Part shown: positions 2,818 to 44,809 of the stretch, in pieces | Layout: the number at the start of each line of letters is the position of its first letter | Numbering within the stretch: position 1 is the first letter of the stretch | Assembly (NCBI GenBank): GCA_964016885.1 | Contig: OZ024740.1 | Location: forward strand, 413,974,001 to 414,038,000 | Source: Eledone cirrhosa | Lineage: Eukaryota | Direction: 5' to 3' | Length of the DNA: 64,000 nt | Made by a program: the position numbers and the translations under genes | Notes under the pieces: generated by a model | The model's input: the letters and a program-made list of their open reading frames with translations, nothing else | Databases searched by the model: none | What the model was told of the DNA's origin: nothing

Positions 2818-4539
2818 CTACTGTCCATATATTTTGAGAAAGGTCCCGGCTCTAAGGTGTCTGCATGTCCCGAAGAAGTCGGTTCTGAGGTTTATCAGGC
2901 CGCTTCCACCTCTTAGTATCTCGAGGGTCTCGTTCAGGCATAGTTTGCATATGCAAGATCCCCCTTTATCGGGTGGTACTTTCCTGATTATGTACCAGGC
3001 CAGAGAGTATGGGGTCCTGTCCAGCTTAAGCTTCCAGATCAGGTCGGAGAGAGCTGTGCTTTTCCTTTTGGCCTCCTTCTTGAATGAATGGCGATGGTTG
3101 TACCAGCGGTCCTTAAAGCTCGTTGATATGGCTCCTATGTAGATGTGTTCGGAGTTGGGGGTTTTAACCCTACAATCGTACACTATGTTCTTCTTGAGAC
3201 ATTCATTACCAAGGGGGCATGATTCGGGGTTTCTACAGTTGCAGAGGGTGGTCGGCCTCTGCGTGCCTAGATTAGGGTTCTCATTATGTGTTACATGTTG
3301 GTCTTCCCCCATTCTCGGTGGGGGGTCCTTGGGTCTGTTTGTGTTTCTTGGGTGGGCTCTGGGTCCCCCCTTCCCTCCTTTCACATGGTTCTGCTGAGTG
3401 TTTGTATTGTCATCATCTGGTTGTGTGTGGTTTTTAAGCCTACTTCTGTTGATGCTAGCTATGTGTTGGGCCAAATTTCTCGTGGTGGAATACGAAAGCT
3501 TCACAGTGTGTCTGTTGAAGATCCTGTGGTATCTGTGGTCCCTCGGGAAGCATTTGTCAAGTGCTCCAAAGAATAATCGGGCCAAGCTTTTCTTTAGGGC
3601 CGCTGAGTAGGGTGGGTTGTACCACGTGATTTGTCTGTGTCTCCTCCTATATGTGTGGGTTGGGGGCTTCGTGATTTGTTGGAGATTTGTTGGTTTGCTG
3701 GTGGTTTCCGCACTGTTGCTTCCCTTTTGGGCTCTATACTTTTTGTTATCTTCGCGACCCGGATTTGTGGGGTGGTTGTTGTCCGCCCCGGGAGATCCAT
3801 CGTGGGGTGGTCGCCCGTTCCCCCCCCCCCCACACACGTGTCCTGCGGTTGGGGTTGTCCGTCCTGGGGTAGTTAGCATCACGCCTGAGACTGCTACTCA
3901 TATTGTGCTCAATCTCGTGGTCAAGCGCACTAGTCCCCGCCGCTCGTGTGGTGGTGTCTGGTACATGGTGCCTATTTGATTCTGCTCTGCCTGTACTGTT
4001 AGGGTTCGCCCTCTGGCAACGCGGCTGTGGGTGTCTGTTGGGCTATCCACCTCCCGGCTTTTCGGACTATATGTTATATTTTGTCCATGTGCCGCCTTCT
4101 TTAGAGCTGCGTTGTAATATTCCGCGTGGTTGTTGAATATTTCCTTACTCGCGGACAGGCTGGAGATCCTGTCCGAGACACTCTTCACCACTGCCTTGGT
4201 TATGGATCTAGGGTGGTTTGATTTGGCGTTAACATATACTAGTTTCTCGTTGGGCTTGTGGTAGGGGTAGTATTGCTCGGTGTTCAGGTTTAGGGTGGTG
4301 TCTAGGAAGTTAACTACCTTCCTATTTGGGTCTATTTCTATGCTGAGCCCCTGGTTCTTAAAGAAATGGCGAATACGCCTCCTCATACCCTCCAACATAT
4401 TGGTGCTGTGGTCATGTACTGTGAATAGAGCATCGTCACGATATAATCCGCCTCCCAGGCAGGGGATTTCATCTTTTATCTGCTTCAGCAGGTAGAGCCC
4501 AACCAGGTTCGTTACCTGCGCTGAGTCGCTGGAGCCCAT
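2818..4539 (-). pseudogene. PLE RT-GIY-YIG polyprotein, 5'-truncated and interrupted (ORFs 3898-4539 and 2818-3882)
   Basis: RT YRDD motif and thumb (SNHPRSI), WYNPPYS, CNCRNPESCPL, YIGAISTSFKDRW, CKLC, CRH. Confidence 0.85.
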
Positions 4540-4609
4540 ATATTTTCAAATTACACAAATTATATTAATTATTTTATTTTATTATATTATTTATTTATTT
4601 TCTGTTTTC

Positions 4610-13630: not shown

Positions 13631-15079
13631 GAAAAGTGTGTGGGAAGAGAGTTCAAAGGGTGTGTTGGGGAGTGGTGGAGAGACATATAGCAAAAAGGGG
13701 GTGAGGGAAACGGTGCAAATGAAATTAAAAATAAAGGCAAGATCAAAATAAAATTAAAATGGGGTAAAACAGGTGGTGGAAGAGTGTGGGGCGTGTAGGG
13801 GTGGTGGCGGGTGGAGTGGGGAGAGGGAGACGGCGTGTCCGAGCGGGGAGGGCTGAAGGTGGTGTGTGTGTGTAGGTGTACGTGTGTGTGTGTGTGTGTG
13901 TATGTGAAAGCAAGGGTTGGGGGAAGAACGGGGTTGCATGTTCAGGAAGAGGTATGTGTCGGGTGGGGTGTAGGTCGGAGTGTGTGTGCGTGTGTGGATA
14001 GAGGGGTGTGGGGAGAGGATTCCGGAGGCTGAATGTATAAATATGTGGTGGTACGCACGTGTGTGTGTGGCGTTTATGCGTGTTGTGGGTGTAGGTGGCG
14101 TGTGGGAAAAAAAATTGTTGGGTGTGTTTGTGGGTGAGTCATAAAGGTAATAACGTAAAAAGATGTGGTGGAATGCTTAGTAAAATCCTGGGATGTGGTG
14201 GATTCCGGGATCAAGGTTCACATACGTTTAATCCGTGAAGAGATTGGTCGGAAGAGGGGAGATGTGGGGTGCGCGCGCAACAGGAAGTAGTCAGAGGGTC
14301 AAGGCAGGAGGAGTGTTGTGTGTCTGTGTGTGCGGGGAGGTGGTCAGAGGGCATAGCAGCAGTAGGGTAGAATGGTAAGTGAATGTGTGTCAGTGTGTGC
14401 GGTGGACAGGGGAGAGGATGGGTAGGTGTGAAAGTTGGAGTGTGGAGGGGGGGGGGGTATTAGTAGAGGTGTTAGTGGGATGAGTGAGTGTTTGAGAAAG
14501 GGTGTGGGTGGAGCAGGGAGAGAAGGGTGTGGGGGACGATGGAGGGAGTGTAGTGTACTTGTGTGTGTGTTTGGTGAAGGGGGTGTTAGTGGGTGTTAGT
14601 ATACAGAAGGTGGAGAAAGGGTTGAATGCTGGTGTGAGTGGGGGTCAGTGGTGGTAGGGTGTGTAGAGTGGGTGGTGTAAGAGGGTGTGTGTATACGTGT
14701 GCGTAGGGTTGGGGTGTTAGTGATGTTAGTTGCGTGTAGGGTGGGTGGTGTAAGTGGGTGTGTGTGTTCGTGTACTTGGGGTCAGGGTGTGTTAGTGATG
14801 TTAGTTGCGGGTGGTGGGTGGATGTGTGGGGGTGAGGGTTAGTGGTGATAGTAGGGTGTGTGTTTAGTGTGAGCGCGTGTATATATGTGCCGGTGGGTGT
14901 GCGCGTGTGATAAGGAGGGGGAGGAGAAGAATGGAGGGATGTTAGTATGTTAGTTGGGGAAGGGTGGTCGGATGTGGGGTGGAGGTGTTAGTATTGTTAG
15001 TTGTGGGGTGGGCGGTGAAAAGGAGGGGTGTGTTAGTGGTGTTAGTGGGCGATATGTGGGGGGAGGGGGGACGGTCGAA

Positions 15080-16985
15080 GGCTGAAGGAATAAAAGTGGG
15101 GAGTTCAGGCCGGGGGGAGTGTGGGTCTGTAAGATGAAGATGGTTCGTTGTTCAACTCTTAGGAGATTGGCGGGTGTTCCGTGGCATTGGAGTAGGCCAC
15201 AGACTGTGAGATGGTGTGCGGAATGTCCAGGGGCACCAAAGTGGCGGGCGATGGGGGAACTACCACCGAGACGAATATCCCGGAGGTGCTCAGTAAATCT
15301 GTCCGCCAGGCGACGTCCAGTCTGTCCGATGTAAGTCGCGATGCACTCCGTGCAGCGAAGTCCATAGACTAGGTTGGAGGAGGTGCAGCGAAAGGCATGC
15401 CGGACAGAGCGAGAGTGGCCGTTGGGACCCTGGAAGGTGGTGGTGTTGGTGATGTGGGGACAGGTGTTGCAGCGGGGCCTAGAACAGGGAAAGAAACCGG
15501 GGGGGGAGCGTGGGTTGGGGGTAGGGAGCTGTGGACGAGGAGGGTGCGGAGATTGCGTGCGCGTTTGAAGGAGGGGAGTGGTGGGGCTGGGAAGATGTGG
15601 GAGGTGGAGGGGTCGGACTGGAGGCGTCGGAAGAGGCGGAGGATGGTGCGGTGGAGGGGTATGGTGGAGGGGTGGTAGGTGATGGGGACGGGGAGATGGT
15701 GGGTGGGTGTGTGGTGGCGTGTGGTGAGGGTGGTGGAGCGGTGGACAGCACGGGCGCGAGTGAGAGCGGTGCGGACGAGAGGGGGGGGGGGGGGGTAACC
15801 TCTGCGGATGAAATGGCTGACTAGGGAAAGGGCCTGGGACTCAAAGTCGGCATCTTGGCTACAGAGGCAGCGGATCCGGAGGAGTTGGGAGTAGGGAATA
15901 GAGTGTTTAGTGTGTGTGGGGTGGGAAGAGGTGAAGTCGAGGTAAGAATGGGAGTCGGTGGGTTTGAAGAAGGCGGAGGTGACGAGGGAGTGGTGGGAGG
16001 GGTCGATGGCGACGGAGATGTCTAAGAAGTGGACGTGGGTGGTGGAGATAGAGGTGGTGAAGTGGAGGGAGGGGTGGAAGGAGTAGAAGAAGGAGAGAAA
16101 GGAGTCGAGCTGTTCTCGGGTGAGGGTCGTGGCTCCGATACAGTCGTCGATGTAACGACCGTACAGTTCGGGCGTGGGGCCGGTGTACTGGGCAAAGATT
16201 TGAGCCTCAACATAGCCAACAAAAAGGTTGGCATAGTTTGGGCCCATTCTTGTACCCATGGCTACCCCCGTGACCTGTTGGTAAAACTCACCCGAGAAGG
16301 AGAAACAGTTGAGGGTGAGGACCAGCTCGGCGAGGCGAAGAGGGTGGAGGTGGAGGGAATGGGGGAGGGGCGAAGGTCGAGGTAGTGTTTGAGGGCGCGT
16401 AGGCCGTCGGCGTGGGGGATGACGGTATAGAGGGACTTGATGTCTAGGGTGAAGAGGAAGGGCTGTGGGCCGGGTGGGTAGGTGAAGGAGTCGAAAAGGC
16501 GCAGGGCGTGGTTGGTGTCGGAGATGTGGGCGGGGAGGGTGGTGACAAGGGGGGCGAGGATGGAGTCGAGAAAGGCGGAGATGAGTTCGGTGAGGCAGTT
16601 CCAAGCGGAGATGATGGGGCGGCCGGGGTTGTCGGGTTTGTGGAGTTTGGGGTGGAAGTAGATGGTGGGGGTGCGGGGGGTGCGGACGATGAGGTGGGAA
16701 GCGGTGGGGGAGGAGGGAGGAGGAGACAAGGTGTTGGATGATGGAGGAAACTTGTTGTTGGTAGAGGGGTGTGGGATCGGAGAGTAGAGGGCGGTAAAAG
16801 AGGGGGTTACGGAGCTGCCTGAGGGCTTCGGCCGTGTAGAGGTCCGCGCGCCACACCATCACGGCGCCTCCCTTGTCCGCCGGTTTGATGATGATGTCAT
16901 CTCGGCTACGGAGGGAGCGGAGAGCGAGGAGTTCACCCCGTGAGATGTTATTCCGTTTGGAACGGTGGCGGAAGTCGAAACGATT
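15080..16985 (-). pseudogene. PLE RT-GIY-YIG ORF with several frameshifts
   Basis: RT motifs are split between ORFs 15369-16862 and 16262-16729; the endonuclease continues to about 15080 (EQRTIFILQTHTPPGLN). Confidence 0.85.
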
Positions 16986-16986
16986 T

Positions 16987-17032
<46 letters not shown>

Positions 17033-17420
17033 CAGAAAAGCCAAAGATGAAAAATTAACATACTTTCTTCTTCTGACACATGTTTCTATGAAAATAAGCA
17101 AGAATACAACAAGAAACGTGTCAATTCTTCATGTTTTCAATTTCTGAATTATTATTTATGTGCTTTGTATCACCGCTTTCATACTGCAAGTTAGATTTAC
17201 TTACATGAAGATTGGTTCTTGAATACTTTTAAGAATTATTCCAGTGGTGAGAAAATTTGTCTTTCTTAATGATTGAGAATTATACTGGGAATCAGATATT
17301 ATTGGCATATGTCTTTATTTACCTGAATATTTACCCTTGCATTATAGAGATGTCAACATGAATGGACCAGTTATTTTTATCTAAAGACATTGTTTCCAAT
17401 TCCATCCCGCCCGTCCCCTC

Positions 17421-21339: not shown

Positions 21340-23732
21340 TTTATTTAGTTCGGGTTTTTATTTTCTAAAGTAGCAGGTGTTATGTGTGTGTGTATGTGTC
21401 TGTTTGGATGGTTAGCATGTTATGGTGTTGACATAATGTATATTAAACCATATTTAATGCTGGTCTATATTTTTGAATAAACATATTTTTCTTATTTATT
21501 CGTATTTGTTCTGTTGTATTGTTAGCGCAAAGGTAAAATGGGAAGACTTGGAATTTGGGTGTCTTATTACTTGCGCATATGTCTAGATGTACGCTTAGTG
21601 GTATCTGTCTCGTGGTTGGATCTCGTAATTGTTGTCATTCTGTTTCTGAGTGTGAGTTTAGTTTGTCCTATATAATCTTCATTGCATCCTTTACATTTAA
21701 TGGCATGAATTAGATTTTTTGATGAGCAAGTGAAGTGATTTTTTACAGCAAAATTTTGTCCTGATTTAAATGTATACGTGTTGCCTTCAATGAGGTGAGT
21801 GCAGGTTCCACAATTAGCGCGACCACATTTTTTTACAGTTGGTTGTGGGTTTGTGGTAGGTAATTTGGCATTGGTGAGTAATGTTTTCAGTGATTTCGGT
21901 TGTCTTTTGCTTTTGATTATTTTGTGTGTTTCAAGGGCTTTTTTCATTCTTGGGTTTTGTTTTAGTAGTGGGATGTTCTTGTGAATAGTGTTGTAAGCTT
22001 CCGCATTTCTTGGGTTGTGTGTTGAGATATATGATAGAATATTGGACGTACCTTGAATTTGTTTGTTTTCGTAATTCATCAATGCCTATTGTTTTAGTCA
22101 ATTTCTATTCCATTATTTATTAATAATGGTGGGTACTCTCTTTCGAGTAGAATTTCCTTTAATTCTTGAAGTCTTTTACTTCGCGTCTCATAATTGGAGA
22201 CAATTGTGCAAATTCTTCTTGCTAGGTTAAAAGGAATGTTCGTCTTCCTGTGCTTTGGATGGTTGGAGGTGAATAGCAGGTATTGTTTGGAATCTGTTAT
22301 TTTGTAGTGTATGTCAGTTTCAATATTTGTGTCTTTTTTTAAGATTAAGATGTCCAGAAATGGGAGTTGATCTTGGCTGTATTCCATTGTGAATTGGATG
22401 TGGTTATTGAGTTTTTGAAATCCTTCAGTTGGTCGAGTGTGTGGGACCAAAGAATGAGACAATCATCCAAGTAGCGTTTCCAATTCTCTGATAAATATTT
22501 GTGGAAGTTCAATCCGTATTTTGATTTGGACTGTTCATATATCTGATCTTCTAAGTATGCCATGACTAAGTTGGCATAAGTTGGAGCGGCTTTTGTACCC
22601 ATCGCAGTCCCCGATATTTGCTTGTAAGTACTGCCATCGAAATCAAAAAAGTTGTTCTGTAAGATGAATTTTAATCCCTCGGTGATGAAACTTGTTTCTA
22701 TTCTGCCAGGTATCTCATTGGGATATCTCTCTAGCCAGAATCCTATTGCTTCTAGTCCGTATTGGTGTGGATCGTTGTGTAGAGATTCACTACATCGAAA
22801 GACGCAATAATAGTGTCGTTGTTGACATGTTTGGGGAGGTGGTTTCAGAGGTCCAGATCGTCTCTTACAAGGCTTGGTATGTGTTTGAGAATTGGTTTTA
22901 GTAGTATGTCTATAAAGTTACTCAGTCTGTGTGTTTCACATTGTGGGCCCGCTACAATTGATCTTAATTTAAGGTCTGTGGGGTATTGTGTGTTCACGCA
23001 GGCTAAGGTGGATTGTTTACAGGCATCGTTAATTATTTTACACTTGTGGCTCTTCGGAAGTCCGTAAAGGTTGCTGGTTTTGTATTCAAAATGTGTTAAA
23101 TAATCGCGTTCGTTTTTAGTTAGGTCTTCCTGGTATCGATAAATCAGTGTGTTTAATCTGGTCATCGTTTCTGATTGCTGGTAGTTTTTTACTCTTCCAT
23201 AGTAATTAGTATTTTGTAAGAGAGAGAACATAGAATTTTTATATTTTTCAGCCTCCATAATGATAACAGTACTTCCCTTGTCCGCTTCCTTAATTATAAT
23301 GTCCGTATTGTTTTTTAGTTCATGGATAATCTCCCATTCCCTTTGACTCGTGTTGGGTTTGGGTTTAGGTTGCGGTAGTTCATGGTATGGGAAAGTAGCT
23401 ATGTGGTCACAAAATTTGTCCAGAATTCTGTTTCTACCTTTTGGTGGGCTGTAGCTGCTTTTATTCCGTACAATTGATTCGTCGTTATTCTCCTTGTCAA
23501 AGAATTGCTCTGTCAGACGTAATTTTCTACAGAAGTGTGAGATATCGTCATTTATCTCATTGGGGTTAGAGTATTGTGGTGTTGGTGTGAATTTCAGTCC
23601 TTTGGAGAGAAGTTTTACTTGTTGGGCTGAGAGGTTTGTATTTGAGAGGTTTGTATTTAAAAGGTTGATTATTTTCGGTTTTTCAAAATCGGTTTGTGCC
23701 ACCGGGTGTCGTAGGTCCTGTAGCCTTGCTCT
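21340..23732 (-). pseudogene. RT-GIY-YIG (ORF2) of element 1, frameshifted
   Basis: LSKGLKFTPTP, IKEADKG, YGLPK, MGTKAAPTYANL, WKRYLDD, LPFLD, CGRANCGTC, CKGC..YIGQT across ORFs 22845-23702, 22345-22602, 22094-22462 and 21567-22082. Confidence 0.9.
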
Positions 23733-24520
23733 AAAAAAATGATTTTTTTCTGGAATGTTTTTAGAATGGTATTATTATATCTAATGGTATTTCTCCTGTT
23801 GTTGTGTGGTCTTGTATAGAAGTTTCGGACGCATTGAGGTTCGGTTTGTTGATATTCCGGGTTGTAGATTTTGTTCCTTTGTGTGGGTTGGGATCTACGG
23901 TTTTGGAACAGGCTCTGTGTGGGCAGGGGTCTACGGTTTTGGAATAGGTTTTGTGTGGGTTGTAATCTGCGGATCGGGTCCTGCATTGTGTTCGGGGATC
24001 TTCGGTTTTTGTTAGTAGGGTTATAGTTTTGTCTATGGTTTCTGGGATTATCGTTATAGTTTTGCTGGGGTTATGTTGGACGTTTTGTTACTTTTTTTGT
24101 TATTTGTTGTGCATGTTTTGTTACTTTTTTGTTATTTGTTGTGCATGTGGTGTGTGAGTTTTAGTTTGTTGTAAAAATGGGTTACCTGTATGTTGTTCAT
24201 TTTTGAAGTCCATTTCGTAGTTGTTGAGCCAGGTGGCGTTTTTTTCCCATCGCTGGAGAGATGTTAGTTCTTCATCCTCACAGTTTTCTTTCCAAAGTTT
24301 TGAGTTTTTTTCGTAGAGTAGGCCTTCAGAGTGCTTTGAGATTTCTGTGTCCATCTGTTGGTCGAGTGACTTGAATTTTTCTTCATTGGAGTTGGCTCTT
24401 AATCGCAACAGTTCTATTTCTATTTTAAATTTTTCTAACGCCATCTTCTCCCTAAGTCTTTGTTGGTTTTCTGGTTCATTCGGGATGGGTTTTATTTGGG
24501 GTTTTGGGGGGAGGATGATA
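23669..24520 (-). pseudogene. ORF1 of element 1 (helical domain plus basic low-complexity tail), truncated and disrupted
   Basis: ORF 24121-24534 aligns by eye with ORF 37140-38318 (ILP.K..IK.IP.E, EI.LLRLR, EKF, LW, EEL.S, WL..YE); ORF 23669-23986 is the C-terminal part. Confidence 0.75.
23732..23738 (-). promoter_or_regulatory. Candidate -1 ribosomal frameshift slippery site U_UUU_UUA
   Basis: ORF1 reads atT TTT TTA gag; the -1 frame reads FFRARLQDLRHPVAQTDFEKPKIINL into the RT ORF. Confidence 0.6.
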
Positions 24521-24584
24521 TACCCCCACCCCAACCCACCCCATACATATATATATATGGGGAGGGCGGGTATATATATATATC

Positions 24585-28991
<4,407 letters not shown>

Positions 28992-32888: not shown

Positions 32889-32931
<43 letters not shown>

Positions 32932-33549
32932 AAATGTGTGTAATCCTTGGTACAGTTAGGTATATTAAGACAGGGGGAAGAAAAAGTGGCTTCACTTGTG
33001 CTTTCAACAAATTTATTTTCTTCGCAAAATCCAAAAAGAATTGTTTTCCCGGATTAGAAAAAAAAATTTTTTCTTAAAAAAAATTATTTTATAAATTAAG
33101 TTAGGTCTTACTTCTTGGTTAACGTAGGAGGTATTGTTTCGTTTTTAGAACGACCTTTCACGCTGAGGTGCGCTTGTCAAACTGATGTGTATGTGGTGTC
33201 TTGTTCTATATATAGGGATTTAACATGTCTGTGGTGTGGTGGGGGGGGGGGTTCTCCCCCTTTTAATAAGTGTATGGGTGTAGGTGTGTTGAAAAAGTGT
33301 TAATAGCAGTAATGAGTTGAGACGGTGAGTAGGGTTGGGTGGGGAGAAATGTAGCAAGTGCGGCCTGCCCCGGTCATTCTCGAAAATTCCTTTATTCAGG
33401 GGATTCCTTTGTATTGAGAATGGTCACAAGCAAATCGCACCTGCCAAGTTTGTAAACAATTATTTTTTTCTGAAGAATTTTTCTACGTCCATCCCAAAAT
33501 TAGTCCTTTGTTCAACACACACATATGTGCGTATATACGTACATACACA

Positions 33550-34876: not shown

Positions 34877-37200
34877 TCATTTTTTCGTGTTCAGTAGAGG
34901 TTTAAATTTTTCAATGAAGAATTCTTCTTTATATCTGCGGAAATGTTCGTTATCCGACCATATCTTGAAGAAAGGGAAGATTGTGAATTTTCCCTTCCCG
35001 CATGATGCAAAGTGTGCGCTACATGTGGTATTTCTGACTGTGGGGTCTTTAATTTGTTGTTTATGTACCCGGACTCTATCATGTAATCCCGTTCCGGTTT
35101 CCCCAATGTAATACTCTTTACACTGTGGACATGTTGCGCAATATATTAGGTTTTTCGTTTTGCAGTTCATGTTTGCATTGACCTTGAAATTATCATGGTT
35201 TTTGAAGGACAACTGTTTGCCCTCTTCGATGAGTTCACAGGTTCCACATCTAGGGTCCCCGCATTTGGTCACTTGCATTGATTCCATCTTGGTCGTAAAT
35301 TTTGCCTTGGTAATTAGTTTTTTAAGGTTGGGTGCTTGGCGTCTGCTATAAATTATCTGTGTGTTTTTTAAGAGTGCATTCATTTTGGTAGATTGTTTTA
35401 GAATCGGGAGATACTGCTTAGCAGTTTTCACAATGTTGATGTTCCCTGGGCTGTGAGTGATGACAAAAGAGATAGCAGGGTTTTCTTTTTTATGTTGTGG
35501 GTTTGGTTTTCTCGGTGTTGTTATTGGGATGTTCTTAGCCTTGGAGATGGCTGCGTTGATGAGTTCCATCGGGTATTCTTGTTTTTTAAGGAATTTTTTC
35601 AGGTCACATAATCTTTTTTCTTGTAGTACGGGGTGTGTTGCTATAGTGCAGATGCGCCTTGCCATGTTGAAGGGAATGTTCCTTTTCGTATGTGAGGGGT
35701 GTGCTGACCGGAAATTTAAGTATTGGTGTGTGTCAGTGGGTTTGCAAAATAGGTCCGTTATAATATTTTCCCCTTCTTTAATGATGAGGATATCTAGAAA
35801 GGGCAGTTCCTTTTCGTTACATTCCATAGTGAATTGTATAGCTTCATGAAGCCTGTTTAAGATCGAATAAAATTTTTGTAGGTCTGTTTGGCTTCTGTTC
35901 CAGAAGATGAAGCAGTCATCTAGGTAACGTTTCCAGTTTTTATTAATGTAGAAGGCGAAGTCGTGACTGAATGTTATCTGTAGTTGGGAATATAATTTTG
36001 CCTCTAAGTGACCCATAACGAGCGTTTCATATGTAGGGGCCACTTTGGTACCCATGGCTGTTCCTTTTATTTGTAGATAAAGTTCGTTGTCAAAGAGGAA
36101 GTGGTTGTTTTCCAATACTAATTTAAGTCCTTCCAAGATGAATTCTTTGGGGAATCTTTCTGAAATGTGACTTGAGTGTTTTGTAATCCAGAAGTCCACA
36201 GCTTCAATCACTAGGTCGTGTGGGATGTTAGTGTACAGGCTTATTACATCAAAACTGACTAGGATTGTATCCTGGTGTACTTTTTGGGGGATATAGTTAA
36301 GGAATTACATATCATCTCTGATGTAGCTTGGAACTTTTTTACATAGGGGTTTGAGTATGATGTCTAATAGGTTGCTAAGATGTTGTGTGCTTGAGGTTGG
36401 GCCAGCAATAATGGGGCGTAATTTTAAGTCTGTCGGTTTTGGTGCTTCGATGTATGATGTATTTTTCCCTTTTATGTTGTTTTGGATTTCTATGGATTTG
36501 TGAATTTTTGGTAATCCATAGAAATTGCTGGTTTTCATTTCGAAGTTGGTTAGGTAATCTACTTCTTTTGGTGTTAGGTTGTTTTGGTACTTTGTTGTTA
36601 GTTTGCCTATTTGGTTCCTCGATTTCCTTTCTTCGTTTTTAGTGATTTTCCTGTAGAAGTTTTCGTCATTCAAGTGTGCTAGAACCATATCTTTGTAGTG
36701 GTTTGTGTCCATGATGACGATTGCTCCACCTTTTCCGCTTCTTTTATTATTATTGAGGAATCCCTTTGTAGCTTGTTCAATGCTAGTAGTTGGTCTGTAG
36801 AGATGTTGCGTTTGTGTTTCGTCTCGGCCGTATTTGTACGTGCTGATCGGCGAAGGCAGGTTATGTATTCCTCCAGGTATTTATCTCTATTTAGCGGGGG
36901 TGTGAAGTTCTTTTTGTTTTTCACCAGTGATTCTTCCTCGTATTGTACACCCTGGAAGAATTCTCCTAAGCGTAATTTTCGACAGTATTCTTCTGTGTCT
37001 TTTATAACATCGGCTGTATCTGCTTTTGGAGTGGGAGTGAACTTCAGTCCATTTTCTAACAGTTGTATTTCTGGTTGTGTTAATTTCTTGGCTGATATAT
37101 TGATTATTTTTGGTTCGATTGGTTCTTTCTCGTCAGGTGTCACTTGAAAGGTGGTGCTTTTTTCTTTTTTTCTTTCATTTGGTGCGAGGCCCCTAGTCCT
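34877..37200 (-). pseudogene. RT-GIY-YIG (ORF2) of element 2 with two visible lesions (frameshift near 36730 in the DKG motif, TAA at 36305-36307)
   Basis: LENGLKFTPTP, YGLPKIHK, LRPIIAG, SFDV, GTAMGTKVAP, WKRYLDD, LPFLD, CGDPRCGTC, NLIY..CPQC..YIGET..R..H. Confidence 0.92.
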
Positions 37201-38318
37201 AAAAAATGGGTGCCATTTGGGATAGGGGTGTTTCTGTTGTGGTGAAACCTTTGGCCCGCCGGAACTTCATGCCAGTAACTGGTTGGGCGATAGACTCTTG
37301 CGTGGTCGTTGCTGTATTGGGGTCTGGTTCTTCTGTTGTTTCGTTCAGTATTCATGTGTCTTTGATTTTGTCTCCGGTAATTGTTCTTGGTGTTATGGCA
37401 GTGGTTGTATCTGGTTCTGGTGTTGAGTATTGGGTCTGTATGTAGTTGTGTGTTTGGGGTTACCCAATATCTGGTTGTTGTTGGTTTATTGTGTGTGGGT
37501 GCTTCATTTCTTGTGTTGTTGTATTTTCCTGAGTTCTGGGGTTTCCTATGGGTTTGTTTTCTGGGTTTTATTTGGTCTTTCCCATAGTTATCTTCATATT
37601 CTTGAAGCCATTGAGTTCTTGACTCCAAGATTTTCTTTGATTTTAACTCCTCTCTAGTTGTATCTGTCTGCCATAGGTTAAGGAGTTTTTCACGTACATT
37701 GCTGCTGCTTCTTTTGTTTATTTCCTCTTGGATGGTGGTGTCGCGTTTTTCAAATTTCTCTTTGAATTTTGGCACTCTTAGGCGGAGTAGGGTGATTTCG
37801 GTCTCAAGTGTTTGGAGTGCTAGATTTAGTCTTGTTGCAGTTTCTTCCTTTGATTCCGATGGTATTTCTTTAATTCGGAATTTTCTCGGGAGGATAACTG
37901 GTTCCTTGCTACGACATATTTCGTATGTGTCTGCTAGGTTTTCACTCCTCAAGGCTTTCCAGTATGCCTGTTTCCTTTGATTTAATAGTTGGTTCCAAAT
38001 GTTTTTCATTTGGTTTCTTTTTCTGTAGGCTTCTTTTTCTAGATTCAGTTCATTCCATTCTTTGAATGCATTATTGGTGATGGAGTTCTGTTCATGTGTA
38101 GCTATTTCAGAAGAAAAGGTTTGTTCTTGTTTTTGTCGGTCTGTAATTAGTGAATCAAGTTTTTCCCTATAGCTGCGTGTTTGTTGTTCCATTTCTTGTA
38201 CGGCATTCGTAAGGGAATCATATTTATCTATTATTATGGTGAGTTTTTCTGATATTTCCTGTAGTAGTGTATCCGATTTCAGGGATTCAGTAGAGGATTT
38301 TGAACGTGTGTTAGCCAT
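37140..38318 (-). CDS. ORF1 of element 2: 392-aa coiled-coil/helical protein with basic N/R/T-rich C-terminus
   Basis: Intact ORF; ATG 25 nt after the 5' pLTR; heptad-like N-terminus; homologue at 24121-24520. Confidence 0.8.
   Translation of the reverse strand: MANTRSKSSTESLKSDTLLQEISEKLTIIIDKYDSLTNAVQEMEQQTRSYREKLDSLITDRQKQEQTFSSEIATHEQNSITNNAFKEWNELNLEKEAYRKRNQMKNIWNQLLNQRKQAYWKALRSENLADTYEICRSKEPVILPRKFRIKEIPSESKEETATRLNLALQTLETEITLLRLRVPKFKEKFEKRDTTIQEEINKRSSSNVREKLLNLWQTDTTREELKSKKILESRTQWLQEYEDNYGKDQIKPRKQTHRKPQNSGKYNNTRNEAPTHNKPTTTRYWVTPNTQLHTDPILNTRTRYNHCHNTKNNYRRQNQRHMNTERNNRRTRPQYSNDHARVYRPTSYWHEVPAGQRFHHNRNTPIPNGTHFLGLGASHQMKEKKKKAPPFK
37200..37206 (-). promoter_or_regulatory. 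Candidate -1 ribosomal frameshift slippery site U_UUU_UUA
   Basis: ORF1 reads caT TTT TTA gga; the -1 frame reads FFRTRGLAPNERKKEKSTTFQVTPDEKEPIEPKIINIS into the RT ORF; that frame is closed upstream by TGA near 37268. Confidence 0.62.
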
Positions 38319-39217
38319 TCTGTCTTGTACAAGGGGATAGAATATTGGAAAATGTGTGTAATCCTTGGTACAGTTAGGTATATTAAGACAGGGGGGAAGA
38401 AAAATGGCTTCACTTGTGCTTTCAACAAATTTATTTTCTTCACAAAATCCAAAAAGAATTTTTTTCCCGGATTATAAAAAAAAAATTTTTCTTAAAAAAA
38501 ATTATTTTATAAACTAAGTTAGGTCTTAGGAGTTCTTGGTTAACGTAGGAGGTATTGTTTCGTTTTTAGAACGACCTTTCACGCTGAAGTGCGCTTGTCA
38601 AACTGATGTGTATGTGGTGTGTTGTTCTATATATAGGGATTTAACATGTCTGTGGTGTGGTGGGGGGTTTTTTCTCCCCCTTTTAATAAGTGTATGGGTG
38701 TAGGTGTGTTGAAAAAGTGTTAATAGCAGTAATGAGTTGAGACGGTGAGTAGGGTTTGGTGGGGAGAAATGTAGCAAGTGCGGCCTGCCCCGGTCATTCT
38801 CGAAAAATTCCTTTATTCAGGGGATTCCTTTGTGTTGAGAATGGTCACAGGCATGTGTATGTACGTATATACGCACATATGTGTGTTGAACAAAGGACTA
38901 ATTTTGGGATGGACGTAGAAAAATTCTTCAGAAAAAAATAATTGTTTACAAACTTGGCAGGTGCGATTTGCCTGTGACCATTCTCAACACAAAGGAATCC
39001 CCTGAATAAAGGAATTTTTCGAGAATGACCGGGGCAGGCCGCACTTGCTACATTTCTCCCCACCCAACCCTACTCACCGTCTCAACTCATTACTGCTATT
39101 AACACTTTTTCAACACACCTACACCCATACACTTATTAAAAGGGGGAGAAAAAACCCCCCACCACACCACAGACATGTTAAATCCCTATATATAGAACAA
39201 CACACCACATACACATC

Positions 39218-39252
39218 AGTTTGACAAGCGCACCTCAGCGTGAAAGCTCGTT
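39218..39252 (+). ncRNA. Candidate hammerhead (U3-A8 variant) in pLTR of element 2
   Basis: TTGACAA-gcgc(acctca)gcgt-GAAA-gct-c; sister copies at 33149-33183 and about 38570-38605 (-) have a stem III mismatch; stem I is weak. Confidence 0.45.
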
Positions 39253-39780
39253 CTAAAAACGAAACAATACCTCCTACGTTAACCAAGAACTAAGACCTAA
39301 CTTAATTTATAAAATAATTTTTTTTAAGAAACAAATTTTTTTTCTAATCCGGGAAAAAAAATTCTTTTGGGATTTTGTGATGAAAATAAATTTGTTGAAA
39401 GCACAAGTGAAGCCATTTTTTCTTCCCCCCCTGTCTTAATATATATATATATATATATAGTAATAATAATAAAATTGAAGACTAAAATCTAAAGAGGGCT
39501 CGATAAGGAAAATATATATCAAATATATAAGAACCGTAGAGCAAATATTTATTAAAATAACATATTAAAGTTTAAGCAAAGAATCGCTGCTTTCACCCTT
39601 AACGGGATCTTCTGAAACTAACAAAGTCAATCTGTAAACGCAGAACTGGATATTTCAAAAAACGTTGCAACCGGAGGAAGACAGGAAGACGATACTTTGG
39701 TTCGTGGTAACGTTCGCTGGCAAAGAACGGGAAAAAACGAATAATACGTCATTAATAGGAGCGGTGAAAAAAATGATATC

Positions 39781-41676
39781 TTGGAACTCATTCGGAATAT
39801 CAAATTTCGGAATAGGCGCAATTCCTTCCAGCAAGACCTGAAGAATAGAATTCATTCTATTAAGGATTCTAACGCCGTGCACGTCCATTCCGACAAAACT
39901 GGCAACCTATATCAAGTGGAGCGCAGTACTTACCATCAACTACTACATAATGCTGTAACTAAGGATTACCGTAAAACTAATCGGTGCGTCATCAATGAAA
40001 TCAACGATGCTGGGTTTAAAATCACATCTGATCTCAACATCCTGGACCGGACTGAACTTCTGGACCCTATCTCTCCCCACTTTACCCTGAAGGATCACAA
40101 ATCCAATTTTCCGAACAACCCCTCTATTCGGCTTATTAACCCTACGAAGTCCGATTTAGGTAGACTTAGTAAAACGATTCTTGATAGAATTATACCTGAA
40201 ATTAGAAGTTTGGCCCCTCTTGCACTGTGGAACAATTCTTTCGCGGTGATTGATTGGTTCAACGGCATATGTAACAAGGAACATTGCCGTTTTATCCAAT
40301 TCGACATCAACAATTACTACTCCTCCGTCACTTTACCACTTCTCCTTAGAGCTATCAATTTCGCTAAAACACTCACAGTGGTTAAGGATTTTGAAGTTGA
40401 TGTCATCCTTAATGCCCGAAAGTCGGTGATTAATTTCGACGACTCTATTTGGATTAAAAAATCCAATAGTACCCCATTCGACGTGAGTATGGGCGCCAGT
40501 GACTCTGCGGAGGTTACTGATCTTATTGGCCTTTTCCTTCTTTTCTCTATCAAGGACGAATTCCCCAACGCGGGCGGTGGTTTGTACCGTGACGATGGTC
40601 TTTTGACCATGACTAAGTGCGGACCTCGTGCTTGCGATAGGTTCAGAAAAGAACTCACAGCCTTCTTTAAAGGCTTCAACCTCTCTATACAGGTTGAGGC
40701 CAATCACTCGGTCGTTAATTACCTCGACGTTACCCTCAATTTATTGAATGGGTTGTATTACCCGTATAGAAAGCCTAATGATACGCTTAATTACATAAGT
40801 AAGCATTCCAACCATCCTGCCAGCATAACCAAGAACCTGGTAAGAAACGTTTCGTTGAGGCTTTCCCGTCTTTCCACCAACGAGCACATTTTCAACGACC
40901 ATTCCACTTATTACAATGAAGCTCTTGCTCGAAGTGGATTTGTCGATAAGGTAACATATACAGAGTATGAAAATAGACCTAGAAGAAATAGATCCCGTCG
41001 CATTTGTTGGTTTAACCCACCATATAATATGGAGGTGGCCACACCATTAGCTAAGATCTTTCTTTCCCTTATTACGAAGCATTTTCCCCTACACATAAAT
41101 ATAGTAAAATTTTTAATAGAAATACTATTAAATTTCTTACTCTACGACCCCTAACCTTGCACATAACATCACAGCTTCAAATTTAGCTAAACTACCTAGC
41201 CGTAGGAACACGTGCAACCCTGTAGTTAGTACTAACTGTAATTGTAGGAATCGGGCTGATTGCCCCCCATCCGGGAAATGCCTCTCTAGTAACATTGTCT
41301 ACAAATGTAAGGTTGTAACACCCACGTCCCGTAGGGCCTATATAGGGTTAACCGCCAATAGTTTCAAGCAGCGTCTTTACATGCATACCCATTCTTTTCG
41401 TTACCCTCTAAGAAGGAATTTACGTCACTTTCAGCTTATATCTGGAGTCTAAAAGACAACCACACCCAATATAAGTTACACTGGGAGATCCTAGCTAGGG
41501 CTAGATCGTATAACGGAAATAAAAGACCATGTGACCTCTGCGCCGCTGAGGCCCTGGAAATACTCTACGCCACGGACCACATCTTAAACAAAAAATCTGA
41601 GGCAAGTTCGGCTTGTAAACATAAATTGCACAAAACCTTCCTGTATTACAGCCCCACGTTATACCCTAACGGATAG
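39781..41676 (+). pseudogene. PLE RT-GIY-YIG, 5'-truncated, frameshifts near 41090-41140
   Basis: SDKTGN, LKDHK, FDINNYY, MGASDSAEV, GLYRDDG, YLD, WFNPPY, then CNCRNRADCP..IVYKC..YIGLTANSFKQR. Confidence 0.9.
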
Positions 41677-43594: not shown

Positions 43595-44330
43595 TCAGGT
43601 CCCTAAATCATGTTGGGCCGTTCGGGTCTGTGCGTACCCGTTCCCACGCTCCCGTCCTGCGCCACCCGGAGGATTCCATGCTGCAAATGTGCATCTTCTC
43701 TGGTGTCTGCAGGTCATGATAATTTCAGAATTCAGGTTGACCGCGTCATCTTTCAGTCTGACTATCTCCATGGCCTCGTGTAGACATAATCGGCCTTTTC
43801 TACTTCCGGTCGAATATGCCCTCGCGTGGCGAACGATACTCCATTCCAGGGCGTACGGAGTGTCTTGGTCTTTCAGGTCCCACACCAGGTCCGCTAACCT
43901 AGTGGAGTGCATTTTGCTACGGTCTCTGAAGGAATTCGTGTGATTATACATCCGTGATTTAAAGGTCGTGGATGTTGCGCCGATGTAGGTGCGATGCGCG
44001 TTTTGGGTTGTAACCACACACTTGTATATTAGGTCCTTCATCGGGCATTTTCCCTGTAGGGGCACCGGGTGCCCGCTCTGCAGTTACAAGTTCTTTTGTC
44101 AGTTCTTATGCATCCGATGTCCGGGCCTCGATCTGTTATGGCCCTCTCAAGGTTCTCAGGGTGTTGTACCGCTGACACTGTTGTCTCCCCCATGCCACTA
44201 TTTCCCTCTCGGCGTTGGACCACATCACCCTGCGCGGGCGCTCTGGTCGCCTCTGGGGCCGGGTTGTCATTTGAGGCCAGGTCCCTAGGTGGTTCTCCGC
44301 GCTCCGTAAGACGGTCACTCTGTCGCCGCG
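43595..44330 (-). pseudogene. Hydra-like PLE endonuclease fragment
   Basis: TCNCRAGTRCP/LQGKC..LIYKC..YIGATSTTFKSRMYNH..LADLVWDLK..CRH. Confidence 0.85.
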
Positions 44331-44809
44331 GCTCAGAAATATATCTTTCTTAGAACTATTTTATTGTAAGAGACTATTTTTAGTTCCTAACTCAATATAT
44401 ACCTTTGATATATTCGGCTCCGTTAATTTGTTGAGATATTTCAAATGTCGTGTAAACCTGGCTGCTATGTTAATGGTGTGGGTTTGTGAGACACGCTAGG
44501 ATGCCATGTGCGCTATTTTATATATTTTATATATAGCATACTTAGATGTGTCAAGGATACTAATTCATCACCCACTGATGAGCTTAGATTGGTATTTTTA
44601 TTCACAATTAACTTTTCGGAACAACAAGTTGTCTTGGTGATTGGTAGTTACCACAATTCCGGTTTGTATTTTTTTTTTTTAAATTGAGACAAGCGAACCC
44701 AATTGTCTATAGTTAGTATTCTTTTCACCTTAGTGAATCAGGTCCCTTACGATTTGAACATATATATGTATATGTCTGTGTTCGTTTTTTTCTTTTATAT
44801 TCTATTATA

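Follow-up and report, generated by a model that had tools for sequence, protein, structure and literature searches.

The 64,000-nucleotide (nt) stretch of Eledone cirrhosa DNA analyzed here (the window, that is, positions 413,974,001 to 414,038,000 of contig OZ024740.1 in assembly GCA_964016885.1) is AT-rich, and decayed Penelope-like elements (PLEs) crowd it together with tracts of (TA)n and (CA)n; the gene of interest, ORF1, belongs to one of these elements. ORF1 lies on the minus strand (37140..38318), extends from an ATG at 38318, in a strong start context and 24 nt after the end of the upstream terminal repeat, to a TGA at 37140, and encodes 392 amino acids (aa) in this copy; its presence had been proposed by an earlier reading made from the letters alone (hereafter, the sequence-only reading). 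The next frame, pol (34877..37266, minus strand), overlaps ORF1 in the -1 frame and carries the PLE N-terminal motifs (from 37119), a reverse transcriptase (RT) with the YLDD motif, a CX4CX2C linker and, at the C-terminus, a GIY-YIG nuclease with two Cys between its GIY and YIG halves. Within the overlap, a slippery heptamer, U_UUU_UUA (37200..37206, minus strand), is in phase for a -1 shift; ORF1 reads it as Phe-Leu, pol as Phe-Phe-Arg. We consider it likely that this Penelope-like retrotransposon, which bears an endonuclease (EN+), has two genes in a gag-pol-like organization and that ORF1, the first of them, is non-enzymatic.

The identity of the element follows from pol and from its flanks. 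Window pol matches RVT_1 (E 2.8e-08) and GIY-YIG (E 1.6e-06) and is bracketed by pseudo-long terminal repeats (pseudo-LTRs) that share a repeat of 510 nt: the upstream copy (38342..38853, minus strand) is 95.7% identical to 32924-33432, within the second copy, 5.4 kb downstream (32924..33549, minus strand), and an inverted copy (38854..39443, plus strand) lies further upstream, next to the first. The inverted and downstream copies each end at a (TA)n tract, so the element's outer ends meet (TA)n. Craig et al. 2021 (PMC8557442) give this arrangement of pseudo-LTRs for EN+ PLEs. The window element is an EN+ PLE with an RT, a C-terminal GIY-YIG nuclease and pseudo-LTRs. The CX4CX2C linker suits Neptune or Nematis, and the element may be called Neptune-like on the basis of this linker rather than of an RT tree. 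At another locus, L049, the pseudo-LTRs are arranged in tandem.

Two lesions break window pol, a stop at 36305-36307 and, near 36733, a frameshift. Comparison with sequencing runs over 34900-38400 (4 of the 14 listed) showed that the pol stop is lacking in nearly all other copies (817/817 and 13916/13940 by contig depth, and 50 of 56 raw reads) and that a base is inserted behind 36733 in other copies (980/1505 and 2804/6090). Likewise, the ORF1 stop reads Trp in other copies (306/306 and 4315/4403), in which case ORF1 would continue for 12 codons, to 37104, and encode 404 aa; the frame delineated by the sequence-only reading is thus real, but its end at 37140 is peculiar to the window copy. 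Because these lesions are mostly missing elsewhere, the window copy can be regarded as dead, and the family as multi-copy and recently intact. Of the ORF1 sites at which the runs differ from one another or internally, six are silent and two changing, compared with one silent and seven changing sites peculiar to the window copy (Fisher p 0.02), which, for a small sample, points to purifying selection on ORF1 in live lineages. In two runs, the depth at 38293-38400 exceeded that of the neighboring ORF1 bin ~110-fold and ~20-fold, with many loose ends running into (TA)n at 38342; this excess implies that short terminal-repeat copies far outnumber full elements.

The ORF1 protein (ORF1p) belongs to a large family. 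A search with the single sequence yielded 8 relatives with 36-56% identity among 2370 candidates, and a profile of 10 sequences matched 953 clusters at E<=0.001, of which 490 also passed 1e-10 and 107 passed 1e-30; of the 953, the top 150 were examined. The closest named relatives of ORF1 and of pol are bivalve proteins. In an alignment of 132 members, W108, R115, P144, K146, E155, D193 and W216 are kept in at least 90%. The structure model (mean pLDDT 74; 190 residues at 90 or above) contains helices at residues 11-70, 76-137, 157-203 and 206-245, with pLDDT >90 in the helices and <50 in the tail. Three parts can be distinguished on the minus strand, namely an N-terminal heptad helix that is a putative oligomerizing coiled coil (38109..38288, residues 11-70), a conserved all-helical core (37584..38093, residues 76-245) and a basic N/R/T-rich tail predicted to be disordered (37143..37568). 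The heptad-like segment seen by the sequence-only reading recurs across the family, where columns 19, 22, 26, 29, 33, 36, 40 and 43 are hydrophobic in 81-98%, and the tail (residues 251-392) is indeed basic, with 29 K/R vs 6 D/E and a pI of 11.3. Among the 95 homologues of 330-560 aa that were counted (63 of 158 were left out for length), the tail is net positive in 93, with a median net charge of +16, and contains at least three RG pairs in 15. A motif of the [S/T]YAx[V/I/A] type, a possible docking site that the window copy lacks, is present in 44 of these 95 otherwise unalignable tails (shuffles: mean 0.7, max 4).

Database searches connected this family to no classified protein. In agreement with the earlier statement that no domain could be recognized, Pfam gave nothing above the cut-off for P0001 or the 132 members, and no family matched more than one member. 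The best hit among PDB sequences (E 0.0025) fell on the low-complexity tail, the others being coiled-coil look-alikes, and a fold search of PDB and BFVD produced none at E<=0.001; its best hits, up to Z 9.1 (rmsd 5.5, 146 aligned), were unrelated helical bundles, for which such a Z is ordinary, and as the N-terminal helix was barely probed, these no-match lists do not prove a new fold. There was no significant cluster match for ORF1 in the ESM Atlas, no match in ORF1-based scans of metagenome and viral contigs, none for pol in viral contigs, and none for ORF1 in prokaryote genomes (sets of 380, 380 (overlapping) and 122). ORF1 can therefore be described as a large family without a classified relative, confidently predicted to be helical, with a heptad helix, a helical core and a basic disordered tail.

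ORF1 is linked to pol wherever a locus could be inspected. Scans based on pol gave 128 loci, many of them too short upstream or from distant PLE groups, and an ORF1 match was found in 7; when 5 genomes were searched with ORF1, one further locus, L130, emerged, and there too pol stands behind ORF1. A PLE pol is thus present at 8/8 ORF1-bearing loci, on which ground a host-gene origin of ORF1 was rejected, and the tie to Neptune-type RT-GIY-YIG elements proposed earlier holds. An in-frame fusion of the two did not turn up: none of 120 pol homologues has an ORF1 domain, and of these the 34 extending to the first motif begin no more than 43 residues before it; a pol part is attached to ORF1 in 1 of 158 homologues, an automatic gene model; and, as weak evidence, no match of 969-2765 aa was found among 6797 candidates. 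Instead of the single ORF ascribed to EN+ PLEs, two overlapping ORFs occur at 7/7 unbroken junctions. The outcomes that the sequence-only reading had named in advance as speaking against it, a host gene and an in-frame extension of pol, both failed to appear. Three Mytilus gene models (P0016, P0283 and P0284) join ORF1 to part of pol, one of them also to a fibrinogen-like end, and are probably automatic models that bridge the frameshift. In addition, 48 PLE-like loci (L001-L048) come from assemblies filed as bacterial, which probably reflects host DNA carried into bins.

The junction between the two genes has the form of a candidate programmed frameshift site. Pol lies in the -1 frame at 7/7 junctions where ORF1 keeps to a single frame as far as the overlap; an in-phase heptamer is present at six of these seven unbroken junctions (U6A x3, U6G x2, A6C x1), U6A is found in 3/3 broken or cut copies, and 9/10 ORF1-linked DNA junctions thus have an in-phase heptamer, for which the chance per locus is 0.002-0.011. 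Element 1, an ORF1-bearing remnant elsewhere in the window, carries U_UUU_UUA in phase at 23732..23738 (minus strand). No AUG precedes the first motif in the pol frame at 9/10 ORF1-linked junctions. No indel is listed at the junction of the window family's copies in the four runs, and a 746-nt contig (depth 306) crosses it with 4 substitutions and no gap. At the protein level, Phe-Leu falls within the final 50 residues in 85/95 homologues, compared with 6 and 7 in the two preceding windows and with a shuffle mean of 8.0 (max 17). The region 3' of the slip site (37125..37199, minus strand) forms a weak stem of -7.5 kcal/mol over 75 nt, or -11.8 kcal/mol with the base of other copies, not demonstrably above chance. 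The G+C content of the next 40 nt exceeds the element mean at 11/11 junctions; the fold z is below -1.9 in only 2, and a simple H-type pseudoknot search beat its 15 shuffles at 2 of 11 junctions only. Beyond the ORF1 family, three distant PLEs without an ORF1 profile match (L099:331, L034:2984 and L007:2897) carry a heptamer in phase at the opening of pol, L007 with an unrelated 363-aa upstream frame, and a further locus, L005, has no heptamer; the frameshift design may accordingly extend more widely than ORF1 itself.

Several points weigh against the gag-pol-like account. At L130 there is a -1 overlap, but without a canonical heptamer (one base is off) and with a pol-frame AUG, so that this locus has either decayed or switched to reinitiation. 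The junctions revealed no hairpin or pseudoknot in common, the fold z ranging from -4.4 to +1.5 at 11 junctions and being +1.0 for the window copy. The search profile included the Phe-Leu site and may slightly favor Phe-Leu matches, weak profile matches may reflect coiled coil or low complexity, and the linkage is partly built in because 7 of the 8 outside loci were found via pol. The selection test comprises only 16 ORF1 sites, from 40 of 396 listed. On the protein side, a CCHC zinc knuckle was found in 0/95 homologues, and neither sequence nor fold comparison gave a significant match with Gag, capsid or L1 ORF1p. Finally, translation of the fusion is predicted from sequence comparison; all the same, -1 ribosomal frameshifting into pol is very probable on the strength of the conserved junction.

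These features can be combined into the following scheme. One mRNA would start in the upstream pseudo-LTR and be read from the ORF1 AUG; most ribosomes would end after ORF1, giving abundant ORF1p, and a minority would slip back one base on U_UUU_UUA to make an ORF1-RT-GIY-YIG fusion of ~1,120 aa. ORF1p would oligomerize via its N-terminal heptad helix, its basic disordered tail would bind and coat the element RNA, and co-assembly would recruit the rare fused enzyme into a ribonucleoprotein, within which it would carry out target-primed reverse transcription at (TA)n sites. RNA binding and oligomerization by ORF1p are on balance to be expected, and a closed virus-like particle seems unlikely. 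The ORF1-pol junction was missed by the sequence-only reading; given that junction, ORF1 probably serves as well as the N-terminal part of a fusion.

The alternative that survives best accepts the frameshift and makes ORF1p an adaptor, the core of which would bind a host factor or target chromatin, or counter silencing, and lend that activity to the RT. It draws on the facts that the most conserved part of the protein is the helical core, with its Trp, Arg, Pro and Lys, which is no known RNA-binding fold; that the [S/T]YAx[V/I] motif of 44/95 tails resembles a docking site; and that an esterase takes this place in some Neptune elements (PMC5408684; the literature cited by PMC number was covered in part). 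Against this, the tails are positive in 93/95 homologues and include at least three RG pairs in 15. Moreover, ORF1p in large excess over the enzyme fits a stoichiometric structural role, as in gag-pol systems, where frameshifting makes an excess of structural protein over enzyme. We regard the adaptor role as improbable.

Under a second alternative, the mRNA for pol would arise by splicing or from an internal start, the U-run and AG serving as a 3' splice acceptor and ORF1 being a separate product. U6-A-G does look like a splice acceptor, the Mytilus models P0016, P0283 and P0284 connect ORF1 to pol, and the pol-frame AUG of L130 would suit an internal start; furthermore, conserved introns in PLEs are mentioned in a figure legend (Fig. 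1 of PMC8557442). Yet U6G or A6C occurs at 4/11 junctions, with no AG there and the slip phase kept, a splice acceptor gives no reason for the constant codon phase of ORF1 that places Phe-Leu in 85/95 homologues, and the join in P0016 falls after the Phe-Leu site and loses the first pol motif, as an automatic bridging model would. This leaves the splicing or internal-start explanation quite improbable. Even less probable is transcriptional slippage, in which RNA polymerase would add a base on the T-run: there is a homopolymer run of six, but runs of six are short for polymerase slippage, which needs no codon phase, yet 11/11 heptamers are in the X_XXY_YYZ phase.

Finally, there is the idea that ORF1 and pol are one long ORF split by a chance indel, with ORF1 extending the N-terminus of a Neptune protein that has a single ORF; it is already largely refuted and has a negligible probability. 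In its favor, the window copy is decayed elsewhere, there are A-runs close to the junction, a single ORF is the description given for canonical EN+ PLEs (PMC8557442, in the part covered), and in-frame extensions of 300 aa do exist in distant PLEs. Against it, the -1 offset holds at 7/7 unbroken junctions, other copies lack an indel, 0/120 pol homologues have an ORF1 domain and the extensions of the 13 distant loci do not align with ORF1 (probability 0.04%). Those 13 loci (L070, L071, L083, L089, L091, L093, L098, L106, L110, L111, L119, L120 and L123) form a distant PLE group in which pol is open ~300 codons before the first motif and a basic motif near the front is shared, with no Met before that motif.

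Under the gag-pol-like account, a further regularity concerns the distance from the slip site to the ORF1 stop. Among 87 homologues that have Phe-Leu or Phe-Phe close to their end, 27 stop at exactly 10 codons after the slip site and only 2 sooner, one of them via the choice of a later Phe-Leu, whereas arbitrary codons in the same frame relation would give 57% sooner and 3.9% at 10. The ten residues in between are 10.5% identical across the 27; the spacing recurs at 5/11 DNA junctions, which have no fold in common (-1.8 to -11.4 kcal/mol). In a quick tree of 86 cores the 10-codon label was clustered, in several deep groups, and the 27 are therefore not independent, so that binomial values overstate the case. 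In much of the family the -1 shift might be triggered, rather than by an RNA structure, by a leading ribosome that waits at the stop of ORF1, ahead by the length of one ribosome (10 codons); we offer this tentatively and consider it rather doubtful. In the window family the spacing is 31 codons (19 in the window copy) and in element 1 it is 20, and the collision idea does not apply directly to either.

In Escherichia coli reporters, a ribosome paused at a stop boosts the -1 shift of the ribosome behind it about two-fold if the heptamer lies 8-10 codons upstream from that stop, with a peak at 9 (Smith et al. 2019, PMC6815119), and eukaryotic disomes are spaced by ten codons (Hill et al. 2021, PMC8599813). 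A rival logic, in which a near stop aids refolding of a pseudoknot, has been described (Bhatt et al. 2021, PMC8168617), and a compact structure of fixed size, invisible to the folding program, would also explain the 10-codon mode. The likeness to the E. coli case is a stop near the heptamer, with a family mode of 10 codons vs the peak of 9; that case is an engineered bacterial reporter, whereas the Penelope junction is a candidate natural, conserved eukaryotic signal, identified from sequence only. The parts of the literature searched describe no natural stop-stimulated -1 signal. If the collision idea is true, this would be a natural collision-driven eukaryotic -1 frameshift that ties enzyme output to ribosome load, and the fixed spacing offers a direct test case for a terminating ribosome as a frameshift stimulator.

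The window contains further PLE remains. The helical block that the sequence-only reading had found in common with the ORF at 24121-24597 belongs to element 1 and is homologous to ORF1 (41/109 identical, E 3e-12), but the element 1 gene is a broken, 5'-truncated remnant with its core (24139..24519, minus strand; profile positions 139-265, E 9e-43) and its tail (23669..24070, minus strand) in different frames; the 12-aa repeats reported for this tail are there in the sequence. Behind them lies a broken pol with RT, Cys linker and GIY-YIG (21443..23771, minus strand), and the truncated front adjoins a 2-kb inverted repeat (24585-26641 and 26999-28991, 94.6%). Decayed RT- or GIY-YIG-like frames of other PLE types are found at 14950-17054, 2818-4545 and 43595-44349 (minus strand) and at 39745-41600 (plus strand), none of the four with an ORF1 match, and the window is thus a PLE nest within microsatellites. 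Rfam produced no hammerhead match for these elements, only microsatellite look-alikes. Hammerhead-like cores were recognized by pattern near the ends of L006, L049, L053, L054 and L056, and the window family's three repeats contain a degenerate look-alike only. A loose minimal-hammerhead pattern, run without a shuffle control, matched the window 17 times (at 29, 916, 12100, 13628, 17444, 30757 and others).

If the gag-pol-like account is true, a widespread animal PLE lineage has its own Gag analogue, unrelated to classified proteins. As the lineage is large and has its own first protein, many annotated pol proteins would be the back two thirds of a product, and, PLEs being the closest relatives of telomerase RT, ORF1 and its signal would give a testable handle on RNA packaging. 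Neither the ORF1 family nor an EN+ PLE slip site is described in the open literature searched, partly covered and including PMC6431247, PMC3846280, PMC5537684, PMC5718144 and part of PMC5009743, with Repbase and figures outside its scope.

Among known systems, Neptune EN+ PLEs are the nearest in architecture, sharing the RT, a CX2-5CxxC linker, the C-terminal GIY-YIG nuclease, tandem or inverted pseudo-LTRs and (TA)n flanks (PMC8557442). EN+ PLEs are called single-ORF in the portions covered of PMC8557442, PMC6515669 and PMC13159263, whereas here a conserved ORF1 of 350-430 aa overlaps pol in the -1 frame; in a killifish Neptune, a 140-aa ORF1 of unknown nature does not overlap with pol (PMC12602865), and esterases are carried by some Neptunes of both fish and molluscs (PMC5408684). 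Second ORFs have been reported, in sources likewise covered in part, for Athena, fungal Coprina (coil and disorder) and Chara Chlamys (knuckle), and a PLE ORF1 separable by a frameshift with a pseudoknot appears in the Fig. 1 legend of PMC8557442, the clade being unnamed in the text. Athena/Terminon PLEs, which lack the endonuclease (EN-), are similar, as compared by description only, in having two ORFs and a coiled-coil ORF1. The legend's frameshift and pseudoknot presumably refer to Athena, as reportedly described by Arkhipova et al. 2017, and may cover Neptune too. Athena is without a nuclease and inserts at telomeres, whereas the window family is EN+ and no pseudoknot in common was found.

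The ORF1p of LINE-1 is likewise encoded by the first ORF, has an N-terminal coiled coil, is basic and is similar in size to Penelope ORF1. The Penelope model, in contrast, is all-helical after the coiled coil, without RRM-like beta structure, and no RRM or C-terminal L1 ORF1p Pfam family was found in the 132 ORF1 members. Nor are the L1 ORFs known to overlap or to be joined by a frameshift (PMC4091050 in part). With respect to the gag-pol -1 frameshift of retroviruses and LTR elements, Penelope ORF1 differs in having no capsid fold match, no CCHC knuckle and no constant hairpin, and no protease was seen. What it has in common with them is a structural gene followed by the enzyme and the same heptamer, U_UUU_UUA, which we take to be that of HIV-1 gag-pol. 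The protein family and the gag-pol-like junction thus appear well supported, the function of ORF1 being what we infer from them, and the analogy to Gag or L1 ORF1p drawn by the sequence-only reading holds unequally, L1 ORF1p being less close and gag-pol, with its conserved -1 slippery site, the closer counterpart.

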